Positions 1,296 through 24,668 of a stretch of DNA of 32,000 nt are shown in pieces; position 1 is the stretch's first letter, and each line of letters starts with the position of its first letter. Position numbers and translations under genes: made by a program. The DNA comes from Telmatocola sphagniphila. Lineage in GTDB: Bacteria > Planctomycetota > Planctomycetia > Gemmatales > Gemmataceae. The stretch lies in contig NZ_CP074694.1 of NCBI RefSeq assembly GCF_018398935.1, positions 3,990,001-4,022,000 on the forward strand, read 5' to 3'. Below the pieces are notes generated by a model, which was not told where the DNA came from, did no database searches, and saw only the letters and a list, made by a program, of their open reading frames with translations.

Positions 1296-1432
1296 CCGGC
1301 GGGGTGGCACTGGTAAGCAAACCAAATCGACGCAAGTCGTTATTGAGTAACAGTTTGTGTGGCACTGGTTACTTGCTGTTTTTTTTATTGATCTTTGCGA
1401 ATTGTAGGACTCAATCCTCGTCCAATTTCCGG
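1296..1432. repeat. Left arm (137 bp) of copy A of the 475-bp hairpin-rich element, separated from its right arm by the group II intron
   Basis: Near-identical to 10618-10754 of the intact copy. It starts CCGGCGGGGTGGCACTGGTAA and contains a second GTGGCACTGG at 1359-1368. Confidence 0.85.
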
Positions 1433-1471
1433 ATAGGGCTAGGAGGAGTATAGGGCTCCCCCTTCCCTCCA

Positions 1472-1503
1472 AACCGGACGGGCGGATCTCCCGCATCCGG
1501 CTT
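1472..1503 (-). ncRNA. Group II intron domain V (catalytic hairpin)
   Basis: The minus strand reads AAGCCGGAUGCGGGAGAUCCGCCCGUCCGGUUU. It has an AGC triad at the 5' base of the stem, a GAGA (GNRA) tetraloop, and a 2-nt bulge on the 3' strand. It is followed by a domain VI-like stem AGGGGGAG/CUCCUCCU and the 3' end. Confidence 0.75.
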
Positions 1504-1517
1504 TCCGGTCAGTGGTC

Positions 1518-2885
1518 TTACCCTTTGAGGGATTGAGCTTCCAGACAGTGCGCCTGTTCCAGGGAGAACAGTCCCGCCTCGGCAAAGTAAGCTTTGGGCC
1601 ACTTGAAGTTGTCCATCATTCGGCTTCGACAATCGTGACCCAGACGACGACGCAGTATGCACCGCAGCCGCATTCGAGTCCATTTATCCACGTCCCGAAA
1701 GATCCCCTTTTTGCTGTGCTTGAAGTATCCGTACCAGCCTCGTAGCGTTACGCTCACGTCGCGGACGATCTGCGACAGGCTATCGCCTCTTTTCCGCTTC
1801 GTTTTCGCGCGAATCGCATCCCGAAGTTTCTCCAGACTTCGCTTCCGAGGATATATCAGACGTTGTCCTTTATAAACTCCAAAGCAATAGCCTAGAAATT
1901 CGAAACTCTCGATCTGCGTGTCCACCACTCTCGTCTTTTCCGGATGCAGTTGTAGCTTGGCCGATTCGCACCAGCGGCTCAACGTCGCCAGGGCTTCTTC
2001 CGCTTCCGCTCGACTGCGGCAGACGATCACCATGTCATCCGCGTATCGCACCATCCGAAAACCTAGGGATTCCATCAAATGGTCCAAAGGATCCAGATAG
2101 GCGTTACTCAACAACGGACTCAAAACCGCTCCTTGCGGCGCTCCCGAATCTGGCTCCCAACTCCCCATCGGCGAGAATATCTCGGCTTTCAGAAATTGTT
2201 CCACCAGACCTAGTAGCGTTCCGTCCGCGATCTTCCGCTTCAGCACATCCATCAACTGATCGTGATCGATCGCGTCGAAGTAGCCCTTGATGTCGACATC
2301 CACCAGATGCGTGCCTCCTTCTTTCAGAAGTCTGTCCACCTCTCGCAAGGCATTTTTGCAGCCCCGGCCCGGACGAAAGCCGTAACTATTCGAGGCGAAA
2401 TCCTTCTCGAAAATCGGTTCCAGCACCTGACGAATCGCGCCTTGAACCACCCGGTCTCGAACCGTCGGAATTCCTAGAGGACGGCCTTCTTCACTCCCCG
2501 GCTTCGGAATTACCGCTCGCCGGATCGCCGAAGGACGGTAGGTTCCGTCCCGTAAAGTCCGCTCCAAAGCTTCCAGGTTCTCGTCCAAATGATTGGCAAA
2601 CGCTTCGACACTCACATGATCCACGCCCGCTGAGCCCCCATTCGCCACGACTTTCGCCGATGACGACTTCAGGTTACTCTTCTTGCACACCTTGTCCATC
2701 AAGCTAAACCAGACGCCTCCTTTAACGCCCTCTTCGAGCGCGCTCAACATCCGATCGGTCCATACCGCAGGTTCCGTCCACGACCATTGCTCTCGGACCC
2801 TACTAACGGTACCCGAGAGTGGGTCGGTTTCTTCTCCGCCTTGTTTAGCCACTGGCACTGACGGCGGTTTCTCTTTCCTGCCCAT
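1518..2885 (-). CDS. Group II intron reverse transcriptase/maturase (about 455 aa from the ATG at 2885; the ORF track extends it to 3113)
   Basis: RT motifs are present: GGVWFSLMDKV...NGGSAGVDHVS, RRAVIPKPGSEEGRPLGIPTVRDRVVQ, GFRPGRGCKNA, DVDIKGYFD, GAPQGAVLSPLLSNAYL, and the catalytic VRYADDMVIV (YADD). The maturase/X region RGWYGYFKHS follows. There is no HNH/zinc-finger tail. I prefer the ATG at 2885 because GAGGAG lies 3 nt upstream. A start at 3113 would fall only 240 nt from the intron 5' end, inside ribozyme domain I. Confidence 0.9.
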   Translation of the reverse strand: MGRKEKPPSVPVAKQGGEETDPLSGTVSRVREQWSWTEPAVWTDRMLSALEEGVKGGVWFSLMDKVCKKSNLKSSSAKVVANGGSAGVDHVSVEAFANHLDENLEALERTLRDGTYRPSAIRRAVIPKPGSEEGRPLGIPTVRDRVVQGAIRQVLEPIFEKDFASNSYGFRPGRGCKNALREVDRLLKEGGTHLVDVDIKGYFDAIDHDQLMDVLKRKIADGTLLGLVEQFLKAEIFSPMGSWEPDSGAPQGAVLSPLLSNAYLDPLDHLMESLGFRMVRYADDMVIVCRSRAEAEEALATLSRWCESAKLQLHPEKTRVVDTQIESFEFLGYCFGVYKGQRLIYPRKRSLEKLRDAIRAKTKRKRGDSLSQIVRDVSVTLRGWYGYFKHSKKGIFRDVDKWTRMRLRCILRRRLGHDCRSRMMDNFKWPKAYFAEAGLFSLEQAHCLEAQSLKG

Positions 2886-3353
2886 AAACTCCTCGAAATC
2901 CACCTTCCTACGTCCCTTCGCTCCGTCGGCATTACCCGATTTCCACGCTACTATGGACGCTCTGACTTCCGACGCACAAGGCAATCGCCTTCCCCGGTGC
3001 CTCGGATATCCCCGCTTACATTCGATACCTTTCGCACTCCTTCCGCCTCCAACCACATCGGATACCTCCCTCGACTCGCTTGGGGCTTTATCTCGGGATA
3101 ATGCCGTCACCATAAGTTCTCCAACCGCTGGCGGACCTCTCGGTCAGTCCGGCTTTGCTAGCTTCGCCCTTAGCCACGCAGGCTCGCCGGTATCCGCTGC
3201 CGAAACGAGTTCACTTTATTGCGGACGAGATGCTCCCCTCGGGTTGCTCCCCACCCCGCCTCGCAGCGACGCAGTTACCTTCGGGTACAAAAGGCCAAGC
3301 CTCCTTTCGACAGGGAATCTCACCCTGCTAGTATCGAATAGTCACGGGCGCAC

Positions 3354-3691
3354 GTGGCACTGGCTATCTGCCAATGCGTGGGAGAAAAAAGTGCCAGAGA
3401 ATTGTCACCCTCTCAGGCACAAATTCGAGCAGAAAGAACGCTTTATTGCAGAAACGCACTCGCAGATGGCCAGTGCCACTCAAACCGTTACTGGATAACG
3501 ATATGCGCTGATTAAGAATGCTTGCCAGTGCCCCCCGCCGGGGCATGAATTCCTTCTGGGTTGAAATAGGGTGATTTGTTGTTGTAGGATGGGTGAGTTC
3601 TAAATGGCACTGTCAGATAGACAGTGCCACCCAAGTCTAGATTTTACATCGACTTGCGTTTATTGAGATGGGGTGCCAGTGTCACCCGTCG
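3354..3691. repeat. Right arm (338 bp) of copy A of the 475-bp element
   Basis: Near-identical to 10755-11092 and 5920-6257. It contains the hairpins CACTGGC-N5-GCCA(A/G)TG and GGCACTGTC-agata-GACAGTGCC. It ends GGGGTGCCAGTGTCACCCGTCG at 3691, about 90 bp upstream of the next gene. Confidence 0.85.
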
Positions 3692-3780
3692 CTTACTGAC
3701 GTGAAAGCACAGACAGACTTTGTCTTCCAGATCCATAACTTTATCCTATCTAATTTTCCACTCCCATTGGGACTCCTCCC

Positions 3781-4782: not shown

Positions 4783-5026
4783 CCGCTCGCTTGTCCGGGA
4801 CTTCCCTAGAGAGGTCATCAGATCATCATTTTTCACATGGTGGGAAACGCAATTTTGATGACCTTAGACTATTTCTCGGGAAATATCGCGTTTTTACCAT
4901 TGGTGTGATGAGACCGCCGAGAGTCTCATTCAACCACTCCATAGTACCAAATTTAAGCGGGAAACGCAATAAAAGTTGAGGGTGGACGTAGGATGCGATA
5001 CTGTAGTGCGGGCACTTATTTTGAAT

Positions 5027-5342
5027 ACGCACTGGCAGGTAGCCAGTGCCACACAGAACATTACCTGACAATGACTTACGGTGATTCTAAAGGGTTACCA
5101 GTGCCACCCGCCGCAGATGGGCAGTGCCACTCAAACCGTTACTGGATAACGACATGCGCTGATTAAGAATGCTTGCCAGTGCCACCCGCCGGGGCATGAA
5201 TTCCTTCTGGGTTGAAATAGGGTGATTTGTTGTTGTAGGATGGGTGAGTTCTAAATGGCACTGTCAGATAGACAGTGCCACCCAAGTCTAGATTTTACAT
5301 CGACTTGCGTTTATTGAGATGGGGTGCCAGTGTCACCCGTCG
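5027..5342. repeat. Copy B: mosaic part-copy of the element (a diverged, inverted left-arm unit fused to the last 231 bp of the right arm)
   Basis: 5027-5113 is a diverged reverse-complement version of the left arm (ACGCACTGGCAGGTAGCCAGTGCCACACAGAAC...TTACCAGTGCCACCCGCCG). 5112-5342 matches 3461-3691 and 10862-11092 and ends with the same ...GTCACCCGTCG terminus. Confidence 0.75.
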
Positions 5343-5919
5343 TCCACGACCATTGCTCTCGGACCCTACTAACGGTACCCGAGAGTGGGTCGGTTTCTTC
5401 TCCGCCTTGTTTAGCCACTGGCACTGACGGCGGTTTCTCTTTCCTGCCCATAAACTCCTCGAAATCCACCTTCCTACGTCCCTTCGCTCCGTCGGCATTA
5501 CCCGATTTCCACGCTACTATGGACGCTCTGACTTCCGACGCACAAGGCAATCGCCTTCCCCGGTGCCTCGGATATCCCCGCTTACATTCGATACCTTTCG
5601 CACTCCTTCCGCCTCCAACCACATCGGATACCTCCCTCGACTCGCTTGGGGCTTTATCTCGGGATAATGCCGTCACCATAAGTTCTCCAACCGCTGGCGG
5701 ACCTCTCGGTCAGTCCGGCTTTGCTAGCTTCGCCCTTAGCCACGCAGGCTCGCCGGTATCCGCTGCCGAAACGAGTTCACTTTATTGCGGACGAGATGCT
5801 CCCCTCGGGTTGCTCCCCACCCCGCCTCGCAGCGACGCAGTTACCTTCGGGTACAAAAGGCCAAGCCTCCTTTCGACAGGGAATCTCACCCTGCTAGTAT
5901 CGAATAGTCACGGGCGCAC
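5343..5919 (-). pseudogene. 3'-truncated group II intron copy (the 5' 577 nt only: ribozyme domains I-III and the first 37 RT codons)
   Basis: Appears identical to 2777-3353 (offset 2566). The 5' GTGCG end at 5919 abuts GTGGCACTGG exactly as at 3353/3354. At 5341-5343 it is joined to the right terminus of element copy B, and 2 nt (CG) are ambiguous at the junction. Confidence 0.9.
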
Positions 5920-6257
5920 GTGGCACTGGCTAACTGCCAGTGCGTGGGAGAAAAAAGTGCCAGAGAATTGTCACCCTCTCAGGCACAAATTCGAGCAGAA
6001 AGAACGCTTTATTGCAGAAACGCACTCGCAGATGGCCAGTGCCACTCAAACCGTTACTGGATAACGACATGCGCTGATTAAGAATGCTTGCCATTGCCAC
6101 CCGCCGGGGCATGAATTCCTTCTGGGTTGAAATAGGGTGATTTGTTGTTGTAGGATGGGTGAGTTCTAAATGGCACTGTCAGATAGACAGTGCCACCCAA
6201 GTCTAGATTTTACATCGACTTGCGTTTATTGAGATGGGGTGCCAGTGTCACCCGTCG
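5920..6257. repeat. Copy C: right arm (338 bp) of the element, attached to the truncated intron
   Basis: Same length and near-identical sequence as 3354-3691. It ends ...GTCACCCGTCG at 6257 and is followed by an unrelated flank (ACCTCGAGTTG). Confidence 0.85.
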
Positions 6258-7497: not shown

Positions 7498-8017
7498 TTA
7501 TCCGAATTCCCACCACTTTATAAGTTGTTTCAATTCTTGCAAATATTGTTTAGGCACACCCATGTTACTCAATTGCTGCAAATGACTTTTAATATGCTGT
7601 GAAATGTTTCCAGCTTCTTTAGCAAAAAAACCACTCTCAGTTAAGTGAATAATCTCCTTATGCATCCATTCTGGTATACGAATAGCAGGCCCGTTTGCTC
7701 GCACAAAATCGGTGGCTCCGTGAGCCAATGCGACCACTGTTTGTGGAACGTGATGCCTCGCCCAGCCCGTTATCTGCTTTAATTCATTAAACGCGCCAAC
7801 CTCAAAATAATGATTATGCGCCCAAATGCACCAGCTCCAAAAATCTTCTCCAACAAAATAAGTGTGATAGTCAGCGATTCTTAAGTTATAGACCGGTTCT
7901 ACTTCTTTGTCTTCGAATAAATCTGTGATCGATAACCACTCTTTTTCGTTGCCTTGTATTCGGTCTCCGATTTTCAAATATTTAGCAGGGAGCCAACCTC
8001 TTGTGCTATCAAAAAAA
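7498..8017 (-). pseudogene. 5'-truncated polymorphic-toxin C-terminal cassette (C-terminal half of a Hint domain plus an uncharacterised effector domain)
   Basis: The frame is open up to 8017. The translation ...FFDSTRGWLPAKYLKIGDRIQGNEKEWLSITD...VYNLRIADYHTYFVGEDFWSWCIWAHN parallels the Hint segment HPFYVPVRGWVPASELKVND...VYNIMVDQYHTYFVG...VWVHN of the gene at 1-1295. About 95 aa of unknown domain follow. It is cut inside the Hint domain by the IS end TGTACCCC at 8018. Confidence 0.75.
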
Positions 8018-8697
8018 TGTACCCCTCACGTAATATTTGCCGTTTTTTGCGATTTAATTCCTAGAGGAATTGGCCCTCTCTTGAACAAAAGATCGCCGTG
8101 ATCGACGAGAGCACGGCGTAAAGCAATTCGATCCATACGGCGAGATTCCTGCTCGAGCAACACTCCCGAAGGAGATATTCCTTCCTCCTTCATAGCTCGG
8201 TTCCGATGGATTTCAACAAGCTCTCGGAACTGATCGCGAGATTCTGTCGCGACTCTCTCCCGACTTTTCCAAAGCGTCTCGGGAGTAGGACCCAGACCTC
8301 CTCTCGGTCGAGCCAAGGCATTGGCTTCCCGTCGAGCCGCCTCCACATCCTCAGCGTTCCACACTTCCGGATGGCCTTCCCAGGCAGCTCTACGTTCGAT
8401 TCGACTTTTCAAAGATCCTATGCCCGCTTCGATCGCACCGTTATATTGTGGCCTCCTCGGCGGAGAGTACAAGCCGAACACGCCTTCTCGCTGCAAATAT
8501 TCTTGGACCACTTCGGCAATAAACGGCGAACGGCAGCGCCTCGTGCCGGACTACGCCGGCCCATCGCAACACCCCGGTCTCGGTCATCAGACCGCTCCAA
8601 AATTCCCCGGTATTCGGCAAAACACCCTTCAAAATGCCAAAATCCCTACAGCTTTAATTCGGCTACAAATGCGACCAGAATTCGGTTCGGGACAACT
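8018..8697 (-). mobile_element. 680-bp internally deleted remnant of an rve (DDE integrase-core) IS, copy 1
   Basis: About 96-97% identical by eye to 12653-13332. The termini are TGTACCCCTCACG... and ...CGGTTCGGGACA (TG...CA ends). It encodes only the C-terminal part of a transposase. Confidence 0.7.
8026..8511 (-). pseudogene. C-terminal fragment of an rve-domain transposase
   Basis: FIAEVVQEYLQREGVFGLYSPPRRPQYNGAIEAGIGSLKSRIERR matches the end of the integrase core (..P..PqtNGk.Er...lK), which contains the third acidic residue. The N-terminal HTH and the first two catalytic D residues are absent. Confidence 0.7.
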
Positions 8698-8983
8698 ACG
8701 CCGCATTCGCAACGATTTGCCCATGCCCGTCACCATCGCCACGCTGGGAACCGATGGGCCACCTTCGAAAATGAGCGAAGGTTACTTCCGCTTCCTCTGC
8801 CCCAACTGCGGCGAAATGCGGGCTACCGTCAACCCACGCAACAACCTCGCCCACTGCTTCGACTGCCAAAAAAACTTCAACAACATCGACCTCTTGCTCT
8901 CCCTCGATTACGACTTCCTCACCGCCGTCGATTTACTCGAACGCTGGCTCAACGAATATCAAACCCGACAAGCCAAAAAGTAA
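8669..8983 (+). CDS. Small (104 aa) CHC2/primase-like zinc-ribbon protein
   Basis: MRPEFGSGQLRRIRNDLPMPVTIATLG...GYFRFLCPNCGEMRATVNPRNNLAHCFDCQKNFNNIDLLLSLDYDFLTAVDLLERW. The CxxC...CxxC pattern with (F/A)xVNP...CFxC...IDL resembles the DnaG-type zf-CHC2 fold. The first 9 codons lie inside the IS-remnant end module. Confidence 0.5.
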   Translation: MRPEFGSGQLRRIRNDLPMPVTIATLGTDGPPSKMSEGYFRFLCPNCGEMRATVNPRNNLAHCFDCQKNFNNIDLLLSLDYDFLTAVDLLERWLNEYQTRQAKK

Positions 8984-9026: not shown

Positions 9027-9197
9027 CGGCGAACGGCAGCACCTCGCGCCGGACTACGCCGGCCCATCGCAACACCCCGGTCTCGGTCATCAGACCGCTC
9101 CAATATTCCCCGGTATTCGGCAAAACACCCTTCAAAATGCCAAAATCCCTACAGCTTTAATTCGGCTACAAATGCGACCAGAATTCGGTTCGGGACA
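9027..9197. repeat. Solo third copy of the 171-bp end module of the rve IS remnant
   Basis: Matches 8524-8694 and about 13158-13329 (CGGCGAACGGCAGC...AATGCGACCAGAATTCGGTTCGGGACA). It forms a 503-bp direct repeat with 8524-8694, bracketing the zinc-ribbon ORF. Confidence 0.8.
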
Positions 9198-9792
9198 TCT
9201 ATTGAAAGCTTATCGGACTACTTTCTCGAATACGGATGATGTCTGCCTCGTAGTGAAGGATGTCGGCGCTGAATCTTTCTACAGGAATGAATCGTTCGCA
9301 CCATTGATTGAAGAGCTGAAATTTGACACGAGAGCTCCAGAGATTCTTTACTTGAATGAGGAGCTATCGCAATCGGAACTTGCACGACTTTACTCCGCCT
9401 GCGATATACTCGTGCATCCCTATCGAGCGGAAGGTTTTGCTTTGCCCGTACTGGAAGCCATGGCATGCGGCAGACCTGTAATCGTCACCGCAGGTGGTCC
9501 AACGGATGATTTCGTGCCCAACTCCGCAGGTTGGAAGATACCTGCGAAAATTAAGTACTTTGGAAGTGATCGAGTGCATAGCGATGCAACCATCTCCCGT
9601 CCCTGGTGGCTGGAACCTGACGTTGATGAATTAAGCAAACTTTTGAGACAAAGTTTTTCTGAAGTTACATCCCACATTCCACAAGGAAACGCATCAGGTC
9701 GTATCGCTCATTCATTAACTTGGGATAGATCTGCGGTGATAATTGAAGATCGAGTTCGACAGCTTCGAACACGGTTCCCGATCCGATTTTAA
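9172..9792 (+). pseudogene. C-terminal half of a GT1/GT4-family glycosyltransferase, 5'-truncated at 9198 and fused in frame to an ATG from the IS end module
   Basis: From 9198 the translation reads LLKAYRTTFSNTDDVCLVVKDVG...LYLNEELSQSELARLYSACDILVHPYRAEGFALPVLEAMACGRPVIVTAGGPTDDFV (Glycos_transf_1 E-x7-E region). The N-terminal Rossmann half is missing. Codons 1-9 (MRPEFGSGH) come from the repeat. Confidence 0.75.
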
Positions 9793-10052: not shown

Positions 10053-10577
10053 TTATATATATTTTGAAATACTGTTAAAAAAGCCCCATGAAGTAATTTG
10101 ATATTGTCCGTAATTCACGTATTCACCTGTTTCTGTATATGGATTCTCTTCCAAGCAAATTCCATGCTCAACATCTTCAGTTGTCATTGCAAAGTCTTCA
10201 TTCACTAACTGCCAAACAGGCAATAAGTTGCGCAAAATTAATCCTGCGGGAACACGTATTCCCCCGACAAATTGATCAATGCTACTAAAGAGAATAACTT
10301 CAGTAGACATCAAAGTTTTGCTTAATCCGAACAATCCTGATAAAATTTTTGCGATTTCTGATTTACTCCAGTGATTCGACGATTGGGCATTTTCATTCTT
10401 GACTTTTTTGAAGAATGCTATTTTCAATTCTTCCGTGTGCTCAAGCGTGAGGAACAATTTTTCTGAAAACTCAAAGCCACATGCTTTATTCAATGATTTC
10501 AGCCAGTCTGCCTTTAGCAATCTTCCCCGTTGTCTTCTAATGCGAAGCTCAATATTTTTCAATCTTTCAGTAGACAT
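10053..10577 (-). CDS. Hypothetical protein (AT-rich, accessory)
   Basis: 174-aa ORF with an ATG start and coding-like composition. I recognise no motif. Its upstream region is replaced by element copy D, 40 bp from the start codon. Confidence 0.45.
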   Translation of the reverse strand: MSTERLKNIELRIRRQRGRLLKADWLKSLNKACGFEFSEKLFLTLEHTEELKIAFFKKVKNENAQSSNHWSKSEIAKILSGLFGLSKTLMSTEVILFSSIDQFVGGIRVPAGLILRNLLPVWQLVNEDFAMTTEDVEHGICLEENPYTETGEYVNYGQYQITSWGFFNSISKYI

Positions 10578-10617: not shown

Positions 10618-11092
10618 CCGGCGGAGTGGCACTGGTAACCTAACTAAATCAACTCAAGTCGTTATTGAGTAACAGTTTGGGTGGCACTGGTTACTTGCTG
10701 TTTTTTTTATTGATCTTTGCGAATTGTAGGACTCAATCCTCGTCCAATTTCCGTGTGGCACTGGCTAACTGCCAGTGCGTGGGAGAAAAAAGTGCCAAAG
10801 AATTGTCACCCTCTCAGGCACAAATTCGAGCAGAAAGAACGCTTTATTGCAGAAACGCACTCGCAGATGGCCAGTGCCACTCAAACCGTTACTGGATAAC
10901 GACATGCGCTGATTAAGAATGCTTGCCAGTGCCACCCGCCGGGGCATGAATTCCTTCTGGGTTGAAATAGGGTGTTTTGTTGTTGTAGGATGGGTGAGTT
11001 CTAAATGGCACTGTCGGATAGACAGTGCCACTCAAGTCTAGATTTTACATCGACTTGCGTTTATTGAGATGGGGTGCCAGTGTCACCCGTCG
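10618..11092. mobile_element. Copy D: intact, intron-less 475-bp non-coding hairpin-rich element (MITE/REP-cluster-like)
   Basis: Left end CCGGCGGAGTGGCACTGG. Right end CCAGTGTCACCCGTCG (imperfect inverted repeat, about 15 of 18 positions with one indel). An internal perfect inverse copy of the left end lies at 10926-10942 (CCAGTGCCACCCGCCGG). Five exact GTGGCACTGG/CCAGTGCCAC 10-mers and two strong hairpins are present. The empty intron homing site is at 10754/10755. There is no credible ORF. Confidence 0.8.
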
Positions 11093-11587
11093 CCGCCAGA
11101 ATTGCTCGCGTTGGAGGTTGCGTTCGTGTCGAGGCATGGAAAGTCTCCGTTAAAGAAACTCTCCAGACTAGCAAAGTACGCAAGGACGCATTTCACAGCA
11201 CGGTTACGGAAACCGTGGCCAGCCGCAATGCCATCGAGCAGGTCTTCAAGGACGTCAAGGAAGTTTGGAGAGCCGGTCAGCAGCAATTGCGAAACCTGCA
11301 CGCCAACATCGGCGCGTTTCACATGAACCTGTGGATGATGACTTTGACCGAACTGTGGGCTTGGAATCAACCGCAAAGGAAGTTAGTGGATCGTGCCGAT
11401 CGTCCCTGGGATAATCAGCCGCGACGGCCTTCTCATAACGATCGACGCAAGTCGTTGCTAAAGCTGATTTTGCAAGAAGAATTTCGAGCACTTCCGCAAA
11501 ACGGGCCCGGAACACGAAAATACAAAAAAGCCGTCAAACGCTTGTTCCTAATGGCCTGCTCCGCTTAGATTATCTGGGAAAGTGCAG
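11093..11587 (+). pseudogene. 3' fragment of an IS701-like DDE transposase element
   Basis: 11209-11587 is homologous to 14765-15139 of the full element. This includes ETVASRNAIEQVFKDVKEVWRAGQQQLRNLHANIGAFHMNLWMMTLTELWAW and the terminal TTAGATTATCTGGGAAAGTGCAG. The 5' side is cut by element copy D at 11092. Confidence 0.8.
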
Positions 11588-12652: not shown

Positions 12653-13332
12653 CTGTACCCCTCACGTAATATTTGCCGTTTTTTGCGATTTAATTACTAG
12701 AGGAATTGGCCCTCTCTTGAACAAAAGATCGCCGTGATCGACGAGAGCACGGCGTAAAGCATTTCGATCGATACGGCGAGCTTCCTGCTCGAGCAACACT
12801 CCCGAAGGAGATTTTCCTTCCTCCTCCATAGCTCGGTTCCGATCGATTTCAACAAGCTCTCGGAACTGATCGCGAGATTCTGTCGCGACTCTCTCCCGAC
12901 TTTTCCAAAGCGTCTCGGGAGTAGGACCCAGACCTCCTCTCGGTCGAGCCAAGGCATTGGCTTCCCGTCGAGCCGCCTCCACATCCTCAGCGTTCCACAC
13001 TTCCGGATGGCCTTCCCAGGCAGCTCTACGTTCGATTCGACTTTTCAAAGATCCTATGCCCGCTTCGATCGCACCGTTATATTGTGGCCTCCTCGGCGGA
13101 GAGTACAAGCCGAACACGCCTTCTCGCTGCAAAATTCTTGGACCACTTCGGCAATAAACGGTGACCGGCAGCGCCTCGTGCCGGACTACGCCGGCCCATC
13201 GCAGCACCCCGGTCTCAGTCATCAGACCGCTCCAAAATTCCCCGGAATTCGGCAAAACACCTTTCAAAATACCAAAATCCCTACAGCTTTAATTCGGCTA
13301 CAAATGCGACCAGAATTCGGTTCGGGACAACT
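12653..13332 (-). mobile_element. 680-bp internally deleted remnant of the rve IS, copy 2
   Basis: Same termini and length as 8018-8697. It carries the same transposase C-terminal fragment (ORF 12662-13267) with a 1-nt difference that fuses frames. The end module at about 13158-13329 has an outward ATG at 13304. Confidence 0.7.
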
Positions 13333-13662: not shown

Positions 13663-15139
13663 CTGCACTTTCCCAGAAAGTCTTAACAATTTAGGGGTAT
13701 TGGGAATTTGAATTGCTCTTGAAAAAGCCGGTGCTTCCGTCAGCATGGTGGTGCTTAAAAAACATCAAGCCAGGAAGGCACCGGCCATGGAAGTATCTCG
13801 TTTTCCCTCCTTTCTGTCCAGCGCTTTTTCCGCCCTGGTCTTCTTTTTGGATGCTCGAATCCAGTCGCTAACCGTGCGTATCTTCCGCGGCATGTTCCTC
13901 GCTCAGGACCAGCGACGCACCGCCTCCCGATGGTTCCGAGCCGCCGCTATCCGTCGAAAGTACAAGTCGGCCTACCGGCACCTTGCAGCGGTCGGTCGAG
14001 AATCCCTTTCGATGAGTACCGCCGTGGGACGACTGGTTCTCAAACACCCGGCGGCCCAATCCGAGAAGATCGTGATTGCTCTGGATGACACCCTCACCAA
14101 ACGTTACGGTCCGAAGGTCGAAGGGGCCGGAATTCACCACAATCCGACTCCGGGTCCGATCGGACAGTTGCTCGAATACGGGCAGAACTTCGTCGTGGCG
14201 GCTTTATTGGCCTGGCATCCTCTCCACGGCATTATCGGCTTGCCTTGGCGAGCCCAGTTATACGTCCGCCAGAAAGAGGTCGCGACGCTTCCCCGCAAGT
14301 ACCAGTGGAAGTTTCGGACCAAGCTGCAACTGGCGGTGGAGATCCTGCAATGGCTCTCGAAGTCTTTGTTTTCTCCGGGGAAAGCAGTCTGGATCGTGGC
14401 GGATGGCGGCTATGCGAAGAAACCGATTCTGCGGGCGTGTCGGCAGTTGAACTTCACATTGATCAGTCGGCTCCGCAAGGATGCCGCCCTATACGAGTTG
14501 CCCTCTCCCTCCCAAGGTCGGGGGCGTCCCCGCAAGTACGGAGAGAAGCGAATCGACTTGGCCAAGCGAGCGGCTCATGCCCGGGGATGGTCGTCGGCCT
14601 CCCTGCAGTTGTACGGTCGCCCAGAAGTCAAAACGTACAAGAGTTTTCTGGCGACCTGGAAGTCGGCGGAGGGAGTCATCCGCGTGGTTCTGGTTAAAGA
14701 GAAAAAAGGGTGGATCGCTTTCTTCTCGACGAATCCGGAGGCGACGGTGGCCCAGATCCTGGAAACCGTGGCCAGCCGCAATGCCATTGAGCAGGTCTTC
14801 AAGGACGTCAAGGAAGTTTGGAGAGCCGGTCAGCAGCAATTGCGAAACCTGCACGCCAACATCGGCGCGTTTCACATGAACCTGTGGATGATGACGCTCA
14901 CCGAATTGTGGGCCTGGGATCAGCCGCAAAAGAAGTTGGTGGATCGTTCGGATCGACCTTGGGACAATCGGCCGAACGGCCTTCTCATAACGATCGACGC
15001 AAGTCCTTGCTGAAATTGATTTTGCACGAGGAATATCGAACGCTTCCGCTCAACGGACCCGGAAACCGAAAATACCGAAAGGCCATGAAACGCTTGTTCC
15101 AAATTGCCCGTGCCACTTAGATTATCCGGGAAAGTGCAG
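13663..15139 (+). mobile_element. IS701-like (IS4-superfamily DDE) insertion sequence, 1477 bp
   Basis: Terminal inverted repeats are CTGCACTTTCCCAGAAAGTCTTAAC (13663-13687) and the reverse complement of 15115-15139, CTGCACTTTCCCGGATAATCTAAGT. The first 12 nt match perfectly. A single transposase ORF lies inside. I could not see a target-site duplication. Confidence 0.8.
13745..15013 (+). CDS. DDE transposase (IS701-like), C-terminus probably frameshifted
   Basis: 422-aa ORF with VIALDDTLTKRYGPKVEGAG, VWIVADGGYAK and GRGRPRKYG motifs typical of IS701/IS4-like DDE transposases. Relative to the fragment at 11093-11587, it has a 1-nt deletion near 14975. This switches frame: the expected tail ...RPSHNDRRKSLLKLILHEEYRTLP...QIARAT continues in ORF 14818-15120. 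Confidence 0.75.
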   Translation: MVVLKKHQARKAPAMEVSRFPSFLSSAFSALVFFLDARIQSLTVRIFRGMFLAQDQRRTASRWFRAAAIRRKYKSAYRHLAAVGRESLSMSTAVGRLVLKHPAAQSEKIVIALDDTLTKRYGPKVEGAGIHHNPTPGPIGQLLEYGQNFVVAALLAWHPLHGIIGLPWRAQLYVRQKEVATLPRKYQWKFRTKLQLAVEILQWLSKSLFSPGKAVWIVADGGYAKKPILRACRQLNFTLISRLRKDAALYELPSPSQGRGRPRKYGEKRIDLAKRAAHARGWSSASLQLYGRPEVKTYKSFLATWKSAEGVIRVVLVKEKKGWIAFFSTNPEATVAQILETVASRNAIEQVFKDVKEVWRAGQQQLRNLHANIGAFHMNLWMMTLTELWAWDQPQKKLVDRSDRPWDNRPNGLLITIDASPC

Positions 15140-15882: not shown

Positions 15883-16257
15883 TTGAGAAAGCTCCTCCAG
15901 GAAAGTTTAGAACGTCTTATTCCGCAGGATGTTGGGATAAGAGTTACATGCCGAAACGGAATCGTGGTCATGGAAGTACCCTTGGGTGCAAGAAAATATG
16001 TTTCGCCCGCTGAATTTGCTCGGATAACGGGTCTATCGTTAGCCACGATCCATCGGCGAATCAAGGAAGGTTCCATCCAAGTCTCACAGCCTGGCGGCAA
16101 ACGTTGTCGGATTTTGATTTCGTTAGAGCATTTTTTCACTGAGGCCCAAGAACAAGCTCCATCGGCAAACATGTCCACAACTACCCCTGTTGTGTCAAGT
16201 CATAGCTTTCAGCAAGTTCCTCCACGGCGAAAAACGCAACCCCAATGGAGGAAGTAA
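15883..16257 (+). CDS. Excisionase-type helix-turn-helix DNA-binding protein (probable start ATG 15970)
   Basis: KYVSPAEFARITGLSLATIHRRIKEGSIQVSQPGGKRCRILIS is a typical MerR/excisionase-family HTH (HTH_17-like). It lies immediately upstream of the integrase and overlaps it by 13 nt. Confidence 0.7.
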   Translation: MRKLLQESLERLIPQDVGIRVTCRNGIVVMEVPLGARKYVSPAEFARITGLSLATIHRRIKEGSIQVSQPGGKRCRILISLEHFFTEAQEQAPSANMSTTTPVVSSHSFQQVPPRRKTQPQWRK

Positions 16258-17501
16258 CTCAACATAAGAAAGGACGAACCATGCCAGCTCGAAGACAGCA
16301 AGAGGTTCTGAAACGCCAATTCTATACATGGATAATCTACCAGCGTGACGGTATCTGGTACGCGGATGGCCGATCCGGAAATCCCTTCAACCTGGGTCGT
16401 AAATCACTTGGAAGCGCCGATAAAAATGAAGCCTTAGTAGCACTTGATGAACTCGATCGTCGAAAGGCAGTAGAGCATAATTTGGCCGATCGCTCAATCC
16501 TTGAACCGCAAAACTCAGGGCTCAGTATCAAGGATGGTAGGAAAGAGTATGAATCATTCATTGGGCGAGCTCCTGTGGCGGGTGGGACGCGATTTAGCAC
16601 GAAAAAGCGATATCGGACCGTCCTGGATAAGTTCGAAAAATTTTGTTTTAAACGAGGTATCTCCTACTGGAACCAGGTTAATTCTCGCGTGCTGGAACAG
16701 TACGTCACGCAGTTGGCGGCCGATGATTATGCGCAGGCATCACAGTATTTGGAAGTCACGACCCTGAAACAAGTAGTTTGCTTCCTGATTGATCGCGGCC
16801 ATCTGCCCTCAACTGCAAGAATAAAACTGAAATTGCGCAAGCCCCAAGGAACAACTACGTATTGCTATTCGGGAACCGAAGTACAGGCGATGATCGAGCG
16901 TTGCGAAAGTATTCCCGGATTACACTGGCTTCGCGATGTAATCGTGTTCCTGGCGTTTACTGGGCTGCGAATCTCGGAACTTGCCTCGTTGCGATGGGCG
17001 GATTTAAATTTTGAGGCGGGCCTGATCCACCTCAACGACGAAATGAACTTGGCGCGAAACCATCGGCAACGGGAAGTGCGGAGGACGAAGAGTGGACGGT
17101 CTCGAATGTTGCCCATCCACTCGCAACTGTCAGCAGTAATCCAGGAATTACCCCGTAATCGAGACGGCTATCTCCTCCATGGCCCGCTCGGTGGGCGATT
17201 GAAGCCGGATACCGTTCGCAACATCCTCGTCCGCGACGTTCTTGAACCTTTGGCCCCACGCTTTCCTGCAACCGAATATGGGAAGGGCTTTTGCGATGGC
17301 CGCCTGCATTCCTTCCGCCACTACTTTTGTTCGCGGTGCGTAGCGAACGGGATCCCCGAGCTGACAATTAAAGAGTGGCTGGGCCATCGCGATAGCAAGA
17401 TGGTTCAGCACTATTATCACTTATCGAATACGGAATCACGAAGGCAGATAGAGAAACTGTCTTTCGAAGATACCTCCCGGGAGGTCCGGGAGGTAGGTTG
17501 A
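16245..17501 (+). CDS. Tyrosine recombinase / phage-type integrase
   Basis: 418 aa. FLAFTGLRISELASLRWADLNF carries the catalytic R. HSFRHYFCSRCVANGIPELTIKEWLGHRDSKMVQHYYH carries H-x-x-R ... H ... Y. It ends 160 bp from the 3' end of tRNA-Ser. Confidence 0.9.
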   Translation: MEEVTQHKKGRTMPARRQQEVLKRQFYTWIIYQRDGIWYADGRSGNPFNLGRKSLGSADKNEALVALDELDRRKAVEHNLADRSILEPQNSGLSIKDGRKEYESFIGRAPVAGGTRFSTKKRYRTVLDKFEKFCFKRGISYWNQVNSRVLEQYVTQLAADDYAQASQYLEVTTLKQVVCFLIDRGHLPSTARIKLKLRKPQGTTTYCYSGTEVQAMIERCESIPGLHWLRDVIVFLAFTGLRISELASLRWADLNFEAGLIHLNDEMNLARNHRQREVRRTKSGRSRMLPIHSQLSAVIQELPRNRDGYLLHGPLGGRLKPDTVRNILVRDVLEPLAPRFPATEYGKGFCDGRLHSFRHYFCSRCVANGIPELTIKEWLGHRDSKMVQHYYHLSNTESRRQIEKLSFEDTSREVREVG

Positions 17502-17660: not shown

Positions 17661-17747
17661 CGGAGAGGGGGGGATTCGAACCCCCGATAGGGTTTCCCCT
17701 ATATCGGTTTTCGAAACCGACGCATTCAACCGCTCTGCCACCTCTCC
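17661..17747 (-). tRNA. tRNA-Ser (anticodon CGA)
   Basis: The minus strand reads GGAGAGGTGGCAGAGCGGTTGAATGCGTCGGTTTCGAAAACCGATATAGGGGAAACCCTATCGGGGGTTCGAATCCCCCCCTCTCCG. It has a 7-bp acceptor stem, the anticodon loop TTCGAAA, a long variable arm (class II tRNA), and a GTTCGAATC T-loop. CCA is not encoded. Confidence 0.9.
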
Positions 17748-24189: not shown

Positions 24190-24668
24190 GGGCGAAATTT
24201 TTACCTTTCTTCCCAGATTCACTCCGCCCTCCGCAATCCCCGCGGTTCAATTTTCAGAACTTTAACCGCAGAGAGCGCCGAGTACACAGAGAAATACACA
24301 ACAACACTCAACGAATAGGCTTCCTTCCCGTTGAAAATGCTTTGCATTTTCAACACTCACAGTACTGAGCACTGGCCCCACAGACTTAAACCTCTCTGTG
24401 CTCTCTGTGTGCTCTGTGGTGAAATTCTCTTTCCTCCTCCGCGGCGGTTCAATTTTCAGAACTTTAACCGCAGAGAGCGCCGAGTACACAGAGAAATACA
24501 CAACAACACTCAACGAATAGGCTTCCTTCCCGTTGAAAATGCTTTGCATTTTCAACACTCACAGTACTGAGCACTGGCCCCACAGACTTAAACCTCTCTG
24601 TGCTCTCTGTGTGCTCTGTGGTGAAATTCTCTTTCCACCTCCGCGGCGGTTTCCTCCCACAGAGAGCT
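24190..24668. repeat. About 2.3 tandem copies of a 202-bp structured repeat in the divergent moxR / PQQ-propeller intergenic region
   Basis: 24244-24445 and 24446-24647 are essentially identical, with partial units on both sides. Each unit holds a perfect palindrome GTTGAAAATGC-tt-GCATTTTCAAC (24330-24354 and 24532-24556). That palindrome is flanked by mutually inverted CACAGAG-rich arms: AACCGCAGAGAGCGCCGAGTACACAGAGAAA and CCTCTCTGTGCTCTCTGTGTGCTCTGTGGTG. Confidence 0.9.

Follow-up and report, generated by a model that had tools for sequence, protein, structure and literature searches.

A 32,000-nucleotide stretch of DNA from the planctomycete Telmatocola sphagniphila (Gemmataceae; NCBI RefSeq assembly GCF_018398935.1, contig NZ_CP074694.1, positions 3,990,001 to 4,022,000 of the forward strand), here called the window and numbered from its first letter, contains a group II intron lying within one copy of a repeated element. 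The intron, 1921 nt in length and read on the minus strand, cuts copy A of the repeat into parts of 137 bp (1296-1432) and 338 bp (3354-3691), which add up to exactly the 475 bp of the uninterrupted copy D (Table 1). In a BLAST comparison of the window with itself, 1296-1431 pairs with 10618-10753 (95%, E 6e-56) and 3354-3692 with 10755-11093 (97.6%, E 4e-167), and the two halves of copy A are contiguous in copy D at 10754/10755, with neither gap nor overlap. The exact split had been proposed in an earlier inspection of the letters without database searches (the sequence-only reading), as had a mismatch at the first base downstream of the intron (+1), and both are borne out, the halves abutting in copy D and the +1 base being C in the filled site (1432) and A in the empty one (10754). 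No target-site duplication at the intron was found when copy A was compared with copy D. The intron termini (GTGCG...CCTAT) fit the 5' GUGYG / 3' AY rule, and the 3' end matches RF00029, the Rfam model of domains V and VI, with 46 bits against a threshold of 40. A 3' end one base longer (..UAUC) was considered and rejected because the empty sites of another hairpin of the repeat, H3, retain this C as exon; the intron then closes with the canonical AU. Taken together with the evidence set out below, it is highly probable that the T. sphagniphila intron is an active-looking, endonuclease-less group II retroelement that is guided by hairpins to a short module of the repeat.

The open reading frame (ORF) of the intron is intact and encodes a reverse transcriptase (RT) with a maturase domain, matching RVT_1 (1e-38), GIIM (1.5e-12) and TIGR04416 (369 bits, cut-off 300), with the YADD motif present. 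The ORF gave no HNH endonuclease match and stops 36 aa past the maturase domain. In its 410-aa form (1518-2750) the RT has the same sequence as QVL30339.1 of T. sphagniphila, and it shows zero mismatches to P0125. Because the 90% cluster of this RT holds three more variants from the same 6.59-Mb T. sphagniphila chromosome, 5-26 residues apart, the intron represents an established multicopy family in this organism, the genome of which encodes at least four variants of the RT.

The repeat that houses the intron has no fixed 475-bp unit but is modular, being assembled from units of core - 45 nt - core - CCGCCGG in both orientations. Its conserved core, GTGGCACTGG, often takes the form of a palindrome, and the 8-mer GGCACTGG occurs 17 times in the window against 0.58 occurrences expected. 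Where the RT ORF of the intron begins, a stretch (2848-2862, GCCACTGGCACTGAC) resembles this core as well, which may be chance. Folded as single-stranded DNA, copy D reaches z = -10.1, its arms of about 75 nt pairing with each other. The repeat is present in the window as four clustered copies, and repeat-like flanks lie on four metagenome contigs. All four copies of the window have a sharp right end in common (..CACCCGTCG), which hints at a defined terminus; around copies A and D no clear target-site duplication was seen, and the window yielded neither a repetitive extragenic palindrome (REP)-associated transposase nor any other cognate transposase for the repeat. The sole transposase of the window belongs to an insertion sequence (IS, 13663-15139), which was rejected as the mobiliser of the repeat, its 21-bp inverted ends being unrelated to the repeat ends. 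Judged by its sequence, mobility of the repeat is plausible. The short palindromic units with a conserved head, the inverted pairs and the strong folding give it the shape of a REP/REPIN-like (REP doublet forming hairpin) or MITE-like (miniature inverted-repeat transposable element) repeat. The hairpins in the window, which consist of GTGG and a palindrome, resemble REP units, with GTGG akin to the REP head.

The order of events might also be reversed, pieces of the repeat having inserted next to, or within, an intron that was already there. Repeat copy B is indeed joined by its right end directly to nucleotide 579 of a second, truncated intron copy, and a repeat end can thus abut the intron. 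With the full-length intron taken out at its canonical GUGCG/AU boundaries, however, the flanks restore a perfect 475-bp copy. The copy B junction has no remaining intron on its far side and therefore reflects a deletion or rearrangement rather than an insertion, and we consider invasion by the repeat the least probable of the explanations weighed here.

Insertion of the intron into the repeat takes place directly beyond a hairpin, H1. The sequence-only reading had recognised this hairpin but placed the insertion 4 nt past it; the stem gains one further G-C pair (GCACTGGC/GCCAGTGC), so that the distance is 3 nt. The H1 hairpins of the window have folding energies of about -13 to -15 kcal/mol, that of copy A differing by one G>A change in the stem and one change in the loop. 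Two H1-type sites are empty, in copy D and in copy B (5052/5053), and both carry A at +1. The repeat offers two further hairpins, H2 and H3, all window copies of which are empty, including a fourth H3 at 11007-11031 with +1 T. The H3 homologue is occupied on a metagenome contig (L164), and the position homologous to H2 is occupied on two others (L001 and L163). Within the window, two of the eight strong modules are occupied.

Table 1. Positions of the intron, its recognition elements and the copies and hairpins of the repeat in the window.
Feature	Position	Strand	Basis or remark
Full-length group II intron, 1921 nt, GTGCG...CCTAT	1433..3353	-	Boundaries given by the colinear, empty copy D
3' exon (137 bp of repeat copy A)	1296..1432	-	95% identity to 10618-10754
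5' exon (338 bp of repeat copy A)	3354..3691	-	97.6% identity to 10755-11092
Intron-encoded RT + maturase (X), without endonuclease domain, 455 aa from MGRKEK	1518..2885	-	RVT_1, GIIM, TIGR04416
Domains V + VI	1433..1505	-	cmscan alignment, RF00029
EBS1, 5'-GUGGC-3', intron nt 177-181	3173..3177	-	Column complementarity across 58 introns
IBS1, GCCAC, final 5 nt of 5' exon	3354..3358	-	5/5 Watson-Crick match to EBS1 GUGGC
EBS3 candidate: G at intron nt 301, within GUG[G]UUGG	3053..3053	-	Domain I column always complementary to +1
IBS3, C, first nt of 3' exon	1432..1432	-	Filled site C, copy D A
Target hairpin H1 of copy A (GCAUUGGC-AGAUA-GCCAGUGC)	3357..3377	-	Ends 3 nt before insertion; fold -13.2 kcal/mol
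Degenerate hairpin H2 (GCACTCGCAGATGGCCAGTGCCAC, +1 T), empty	3456..3479	+	Also empty at 6022-6045, 10857-10880
Hairpin H3 (GGCACTGTC-AGATA-GACAGTGCC-AC, +1 C), empty	3606..3630	+	Also empty at 5257-5281, 6172-6196
Repeat copy B, variant module order; empty H1-type hairpin 5029-5052 on plus strand, +1 A	5023..5342	+	Self-comparison
Second intron copy, cut to its first 579 nt, in the H1 site of repeat copy C	5341..5919	-	100% identical to 2775-3353
Repeat copy C (338-bp part only), 5' exon of truncated intron	5920..6257	-	Self-comparison
Uninterrupted 475-bp repeat copy D; empty H1 at 10754/10755, hairpin 10758-10778, +1 A	10618..11092	-	Self-comparison

The means by which the intron recognises its exons was read from its relatives. 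RT scans of genome and metagenome collections gave about 160 loci (RT identity 31-58%), mostly from Verrucomicrobiota and Planctomycetota; the intron ends of the relatives were located by profile searches, and the covariation sets comprised 45-58 related introns. The triad of domain V is AGC, its distal stem has 4 bp and its loop is 5 nt long (GAGAU in this intron); all close relatives agree in triad, stem and loop length. Domain VI carries a bulged A 8 nt from the intron 3' end. The fold of domains I-III, obtained by RNAalifold with 18 relatives, contains 77 pairs, 56 of them with compensatory changes. Exon-binding site 1 (EBS1) was found from the per-position mutual information (MI) between 5'-exon bases and the aligned ribozymes, five adjacent columns being the complement of exon bases -1 to -5 in 93-100% of the 58 introns (MI 0.6-1.4), which bear many different sequences at the corresponding intron-binding site (IBS1). 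It sits in a terminal loop, GAGCC-UGC[GUGGC]UAA-GGC, which is closed by covarying pairs. In the aligned relatives none of the intron columns complements the exon from -6 to -15, and the intron therefore has no EBS2. A further domain I column is G in 55 aligned sequences with C at +1, the window intron included, and A in three with U at +1, making it a candidate EBS3; C is the +1 base in 54 of 57 relatives. The EBS-IBS complementarity to this flank that the sequence-only reading had named as a check is thus present, since EBS1, placed independently by covariation, matches the exon end at all five positions and the candidate EBS3 G pairs with the +1 C.

Sites occupied in close relatives extend this picture beyond the window. 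On L001 and L163, two contigs that represent one site (RT 95% identical), the intron lies at the H2 position and is preceded by ...GGCACTGGCAATAGCCAGAGCCAC. The preceding sequence on L164 (RT 95% identical) is GGCACTGTCAGATAGACAGTGCCAC, which is hairpin H3, and on L162 (RT 74% identical) it is CCACTGGCATATCCAGTGGCAC; contig L161 (RT 71% identical) begins only 7 nt upstream of the intron, those 7 nt being GTGCCAC. The 5' exons of these close relatives have GCCAC or GGCAC as their last bases, behind hairpins of the same type, with three further hairpin positions used, and the +1 base is C in L001, L162, L163 and L164, L161 stopping before the 3' junction. The repeat core, ..GTGCCACCC(C/A)GCCG, is found in two of those 3' exons. 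Copies in unrelated sites free of hairpins, which the sequence-only reading had held to be the sign of an accidental association, are not what the relatives present: three of the four independent contigs with 71-95% RT identity follow the same hairpin type and (G/C)CAC, with +1 C and surroundings of the repeat family, and a hairpin also precedes 40 of 45 more distant relatives. For the latter, a hairpin ends within 5 nt of the junction in 40 of 45 distinct 5' exons against 56 of 137 nearby control windows (p = 1e-8). From the occupied sites on these contigs it therefore follows that the lineage tracks a module of hairpin, (G)CCAC and C, which each repeat copy supplies several times and on both strands. 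The earlier suggestion that a multicopy mobile element serves as a dispersed homing site holds as far as repeated use is concerned, and is refined in that the target is the module of hairpin, GCCAC and C at several positions.

Repeats of similar form are occupied by related introns in other bacteria. A Limisphaerales chromosome, OZ245740, carries six copies of a related 1877-nt intron (L035, L036, L037, L039, L061, L068), five of which lie in the centre (CACTC/CATGGAGTG) of a palindromic repeat of about 150 bp, in both orientations. This repeat has the ends GTGATTGGAAAAGGG...CCCTTTTCTAATCAC, and an empty copy (around L068:9500-9665) is found 4 kb from one of the introns. EBS1 of these introns is GAGUG and IBS1 is CACTC; the stems vary between copies by compensatory changes and the ACTC that follows them is kept. 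In a verrucomicrobial metagenome-assembled genome (MAG; L040 with two copies, L066) and a Luteolibacter MAG (L041), the introns lie at ..GGCGAnnCGGAGnnCGCC(G/A)CTC/CTTG, with an inverted partner, CAAGGAGCGGCG..CCGCCG, about 90 nt upstream, the two forming a REPIN-like inverted hairpin pair of which the second site is empty.

Most group II introns home to long, sequence-specific sites, and a site of this kind (20-35 bp), with the hairpin incidental, would account for two insertions that share one exact position in the 475-bp element and for an EBS1 that at 5 bp is longer than that of class C introns. Against such a site, there is no EBS2 covariation, the sites of close relatives differ upstream of the hairpin and downstream of +1, and the Limisphaerales stems differ by compensatory changes with ACTC kept. 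We therefore judge recognition of a long homing site very unlikely and the short hairpin-bearing module the better description of the target.

The second insertion at exactly this position is the truncated copy in repeat copy C, which the sequence-only reading had overlooked here and which shares with the full-length intron 917 bp at 99.5%, flank included. Such an extended identity is what would be expected if the link to the repeat were accidental, a single chance insertion having been duplicated together with its flanks as part of a larger segment. The five mismatches, however, are all confined to the 338-bp repeat part, the 579 nt of intron being free of them, a split that has a probability of 0.007 under co-duplication of both copies. 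The sequence comparison thus points to the second copy as a separate insertion or to a later homogenisation of the intron. Relatives on other contigs moreover occupy different hairpins of the repeat family, and EBS1 matches the repeat core, both of which speak against duplication, an explanation that we consider highly improbable. At its other end, the truncated intron is fused at nucleotide 579 to the right end of copy B with a 2-bp microhomology (CG; junction 5340-5343), exactly at the terminus ..CACCCGTCG. This fusion looks like a deletion anchored at the repeat end, which would fit some enzyme cutting repeat ends. The truncated copy retains the 5' 579 nt, the opposite of the leftover expected from abortive reverse transcription.

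Insertion beside a stem-loop is the behaviour of bacterial class C (IIC) introns, to which the sequence-only reading had likened the element; the behaviour is confirmed, while membership is not, the defining RNA features of the class being absent. In canonical IIC introns EBS1 and IBS1 pair over 3-4 bp, the triad of domain V is CGC and the distal stem is shorter by 2 bp (PMC1702495); such introns lie after terminators "or other inverted repeats" (Toor 2006, PMC1702495). An ordinary IIC intron that inserted after an inverted repeat would explain much of what is seen here, including the lack of an endonuclease domain, the hairpin just upstream of IBS1, the lack of EBS2 and the single EBS3-IBS3 pair, thinly supported by three changes. 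The four best RT matches among solved structures are also all IIC (GsI-IIC 226 bits, E. rectale 214, and two at 185 bits), followed by TeI4h with 144 and LtrA with 139 bits. In contrast, the EBS1-IBS1 pairing comprises five consecutive covarying pairs, -1 to -5, and domain V has the AGC triad, 4-bp distal stem and 5-nt loop, whereas in L072, an intron verified by sequence as canonical IIC, the triad is CGC and the distal stem measures 3 bp. A loop of 5 nt in domain V is named as an idiosyncrasy of classes IIE and IIF (PMC3753933). The model of IIC domain I, RF02001, gives no match to the window intron at E <= 10 and scores 120-142 bits with the L072 and L078 introns; among the Rfam domain I models only D1D4-1 matches the window intron, below threshold (23 bits). 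At its 5' end the intron reads GUGCGCCCGUGACUAUUCG as opposed to the IIC-type GUGYGCCCRGCAUGGG. In a rough neighbour-joining tree of RTs, built without a labelled reference set, the lineage lies away from the L072/L078 pair and nearer to introns with other domain I types; RT identities are 34-35% to the former and 38-43% to the latter. Ordinary class C membership is for these reasons rather unlikely, and we file the intron as one that works like class C but fails canonical IIC membership. An Ignavibacteriales intron (RT 41% identical) that follows a classical terminator (GGCGCCGGA..TCCGGCGCTTTTATT, L056:700-740) combines an AGC domain V and 5-nt loop with a marginal match to IIC domain I and may stand between canonical IIC and the present lineage as an intermediate form.

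Neither of the two established IIC targets was recognised at the insertion site. H1 is followed by no T-run on either strand, and the target is thus no terminator, nor is it an attC site. An integron was rejected as the setting, as the tyrosine recombinase at 16245-17501 scores 37 bits with TIGR02249 against a cut-off of 265 and adjoins a tRNA gene, and there are no attC cores.

In the mechanism we propose, the target would be a DNA hairpin of 7-10 bp with the insertion point 2-3 nt beyond it. The final five exon bases, GCCAC, pair with EBS1 GUGGC in the domain I loop, and the first downstream base, C, would pair with the single EBS3 G, the hairpin substituting for EBS2. The intron would retrohome to this module within the repeat core, and because the module belongs to the conserved core, each copy of the repeat would present several potential sites, on both strands and all non-coding. 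By analogy with endonuclease-less class-C-type introns (PMC4424553), reverse splicing would take place into DNA able to extrude the hairpin, and the cDNA would be primed by nascent strands of the replication fork (PMC4424553). The A at +1 may keep copies D and B empty.

Three observations weigh against this scheme. The EBS3 assignment rests on three variant introns, possibly related to each other, and it is because the support amounts to three changes that we call it a candidate. The filled hairpin of copy A has the G>A change, which produces a G-T mispair in DNA, so that either a stem need not be perfect or the change arose afterwards. Finally, three H3 sites in the window that combine GCCAC with +1 C are still empty, and the module is therefore permissive but not sufficient.

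Insertion of class C introns after inverted repeats is already known, as is the use of REP-type repeats as targets by insertion sequences (PMC1525189); what is new here is the combination of a non-canonical ribozyme and RT lineage with a guide matched to the core of a repeat. At this locus a filled and an empty site form a clean natural pair, from which a recognition code, consisting of the hairpin, 5 bp of EBS1-IBS1 pairing and a +1 C, can be read, and it extends hairpin-guided insertion beyond ribozymes of canonical IIC architecture. It also suggests that short palindromic repeats act as renewable and harmless landing pads for the multiplication of introns in the large genomes of Planctomycetota and Verrucomicrobiota. 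The match of EBS1 to the repeat could serve the prediction of intron targets, and a 5-bp guide combined with a structural cue is a possible start for targetable introns that work independently of an endonuclease. A broader reading is possible but tentative, namely that a distinct lineage dominated by Planctomycetota and Verrucomicrobiota, outside canonical class C, took up hairpin-guided insertion and specialised on host-specific REP/REPIN-like or MITE-like repeats, its 5-nt EBS1 being tuned in each genome to the repeat core. If this is true, a retroelement would be living on another family of repeats, which would add a type of target to homing sites, terminators and attC.

The window also holds other mobile and repeated sequences. 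The tyrosine recombinase gene (16245-17501, plus strand), whose product is not an integron integrase, adjoins a long-arm tRNA gene (17661-17747, minus strand). To the left of this pair lie IS, toxin-fragment, repeat and intron sequences and to the right housekeeping genes (rho, coaE, MoxR ATPase); the cluster of intron and repeats is probably part of a tRNA-adjacent genomic island. A pretoxin-HINT fragment and a YxiF-like small protein (7498-7977 and 10053-10577, both minus strand) lie among short minus-strand ORFs, as do segments of 680 bp (8018-8697 and 12654-13332) and 175 bp (8524-8698 and 9027-9201) that are each present twice; the arrangement resembles an array of orphan polymorphic-toxin/immunity cassettes. 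The IS at 13663-15139 encodes a DDE transposase (13745-15013) between its 21-bp inverted ends, and its right 380 bp recur, at 88% identity, directly after repeat copy D (11208-11587). Further along, a near-perfect tandem duplication of a 202-bp unit (24242-24651, 99.5%) is found just upstream of a gene for a PQQ/BamB-like beta-propeller.

Several known systems share parts of this behaviour. The terminator-targeting IIC introns, such as B.h.I1, GsI-IIC and the intron of O. iheyensis, likewise combine an endonuclease-less RT/maturase with a 5'-exon hairpin in place of IBS2 (PMC1702495, PMC4424553); they are similar also in the short EBS1-IBS1 and single EBS3-IBS3 pairings and in their intergenic, multicopy occurrence, and theirs are the closest RTs of solved structure. 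The present intron differs from them in that its hairpins lack a T-run and are part of a repeat family, in its EBS1 of 5 bp, in the AGC triad and 5-nt loop of domain V, in a domain I that does not follow the model and in an RT placed outside the IIC pair in the rough tree. The IIC-attC introns (S.ma.I2 lineage) target the hairpins of recurring, structured, non-coding sites, of which there are many in a genome (PMC3001079, PMC7923331), and their IBS1 and IBS3 are fixed by the site as they are here, with TTGT and T in IIC-attC in place of GCCAC and C (PMC3001079, PMC7923331). The T. sphagniphila locus, in contrast, has no attC cores, the neighbouring recombinase is no integron integrase, the repeat is modular and 475 bp long, and the intron's 5' end differs from the GTGCGCCCAGCATGGG type of the S.ma.I2 lineage. 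Class E and F introns, which are small and IIB-like, resemble the present one in their ribozyme of about 550 nt without the ORF, their 5-nt domain V loop, their AGC triad and their lack of an endonuclease domain; they are set apart here by their descriptions, which give IIE and IIF a clearly covarying EBS2-IBS2 pairing and sequence-defined homing sites. The use of extragenic palindromic repeats as abundant and harmless landing sites, finally, is shared with REP-targeting elements (PMC1525189). REP sequences and bacterial interspersed mosaic elements (BIMEs) are palindromic targets of ISPpu9, ISPpu10 and IS1397, and a group II intron of P. putida KT2440 has two of its nine copies (22%) near REPs, a weak association (PMC1525189). 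These elements, however, are mostly DNA transposons, whereas in the T. sphagniphila intron the logic of recognition is explicit, EBS1 matching the core of the repeat.

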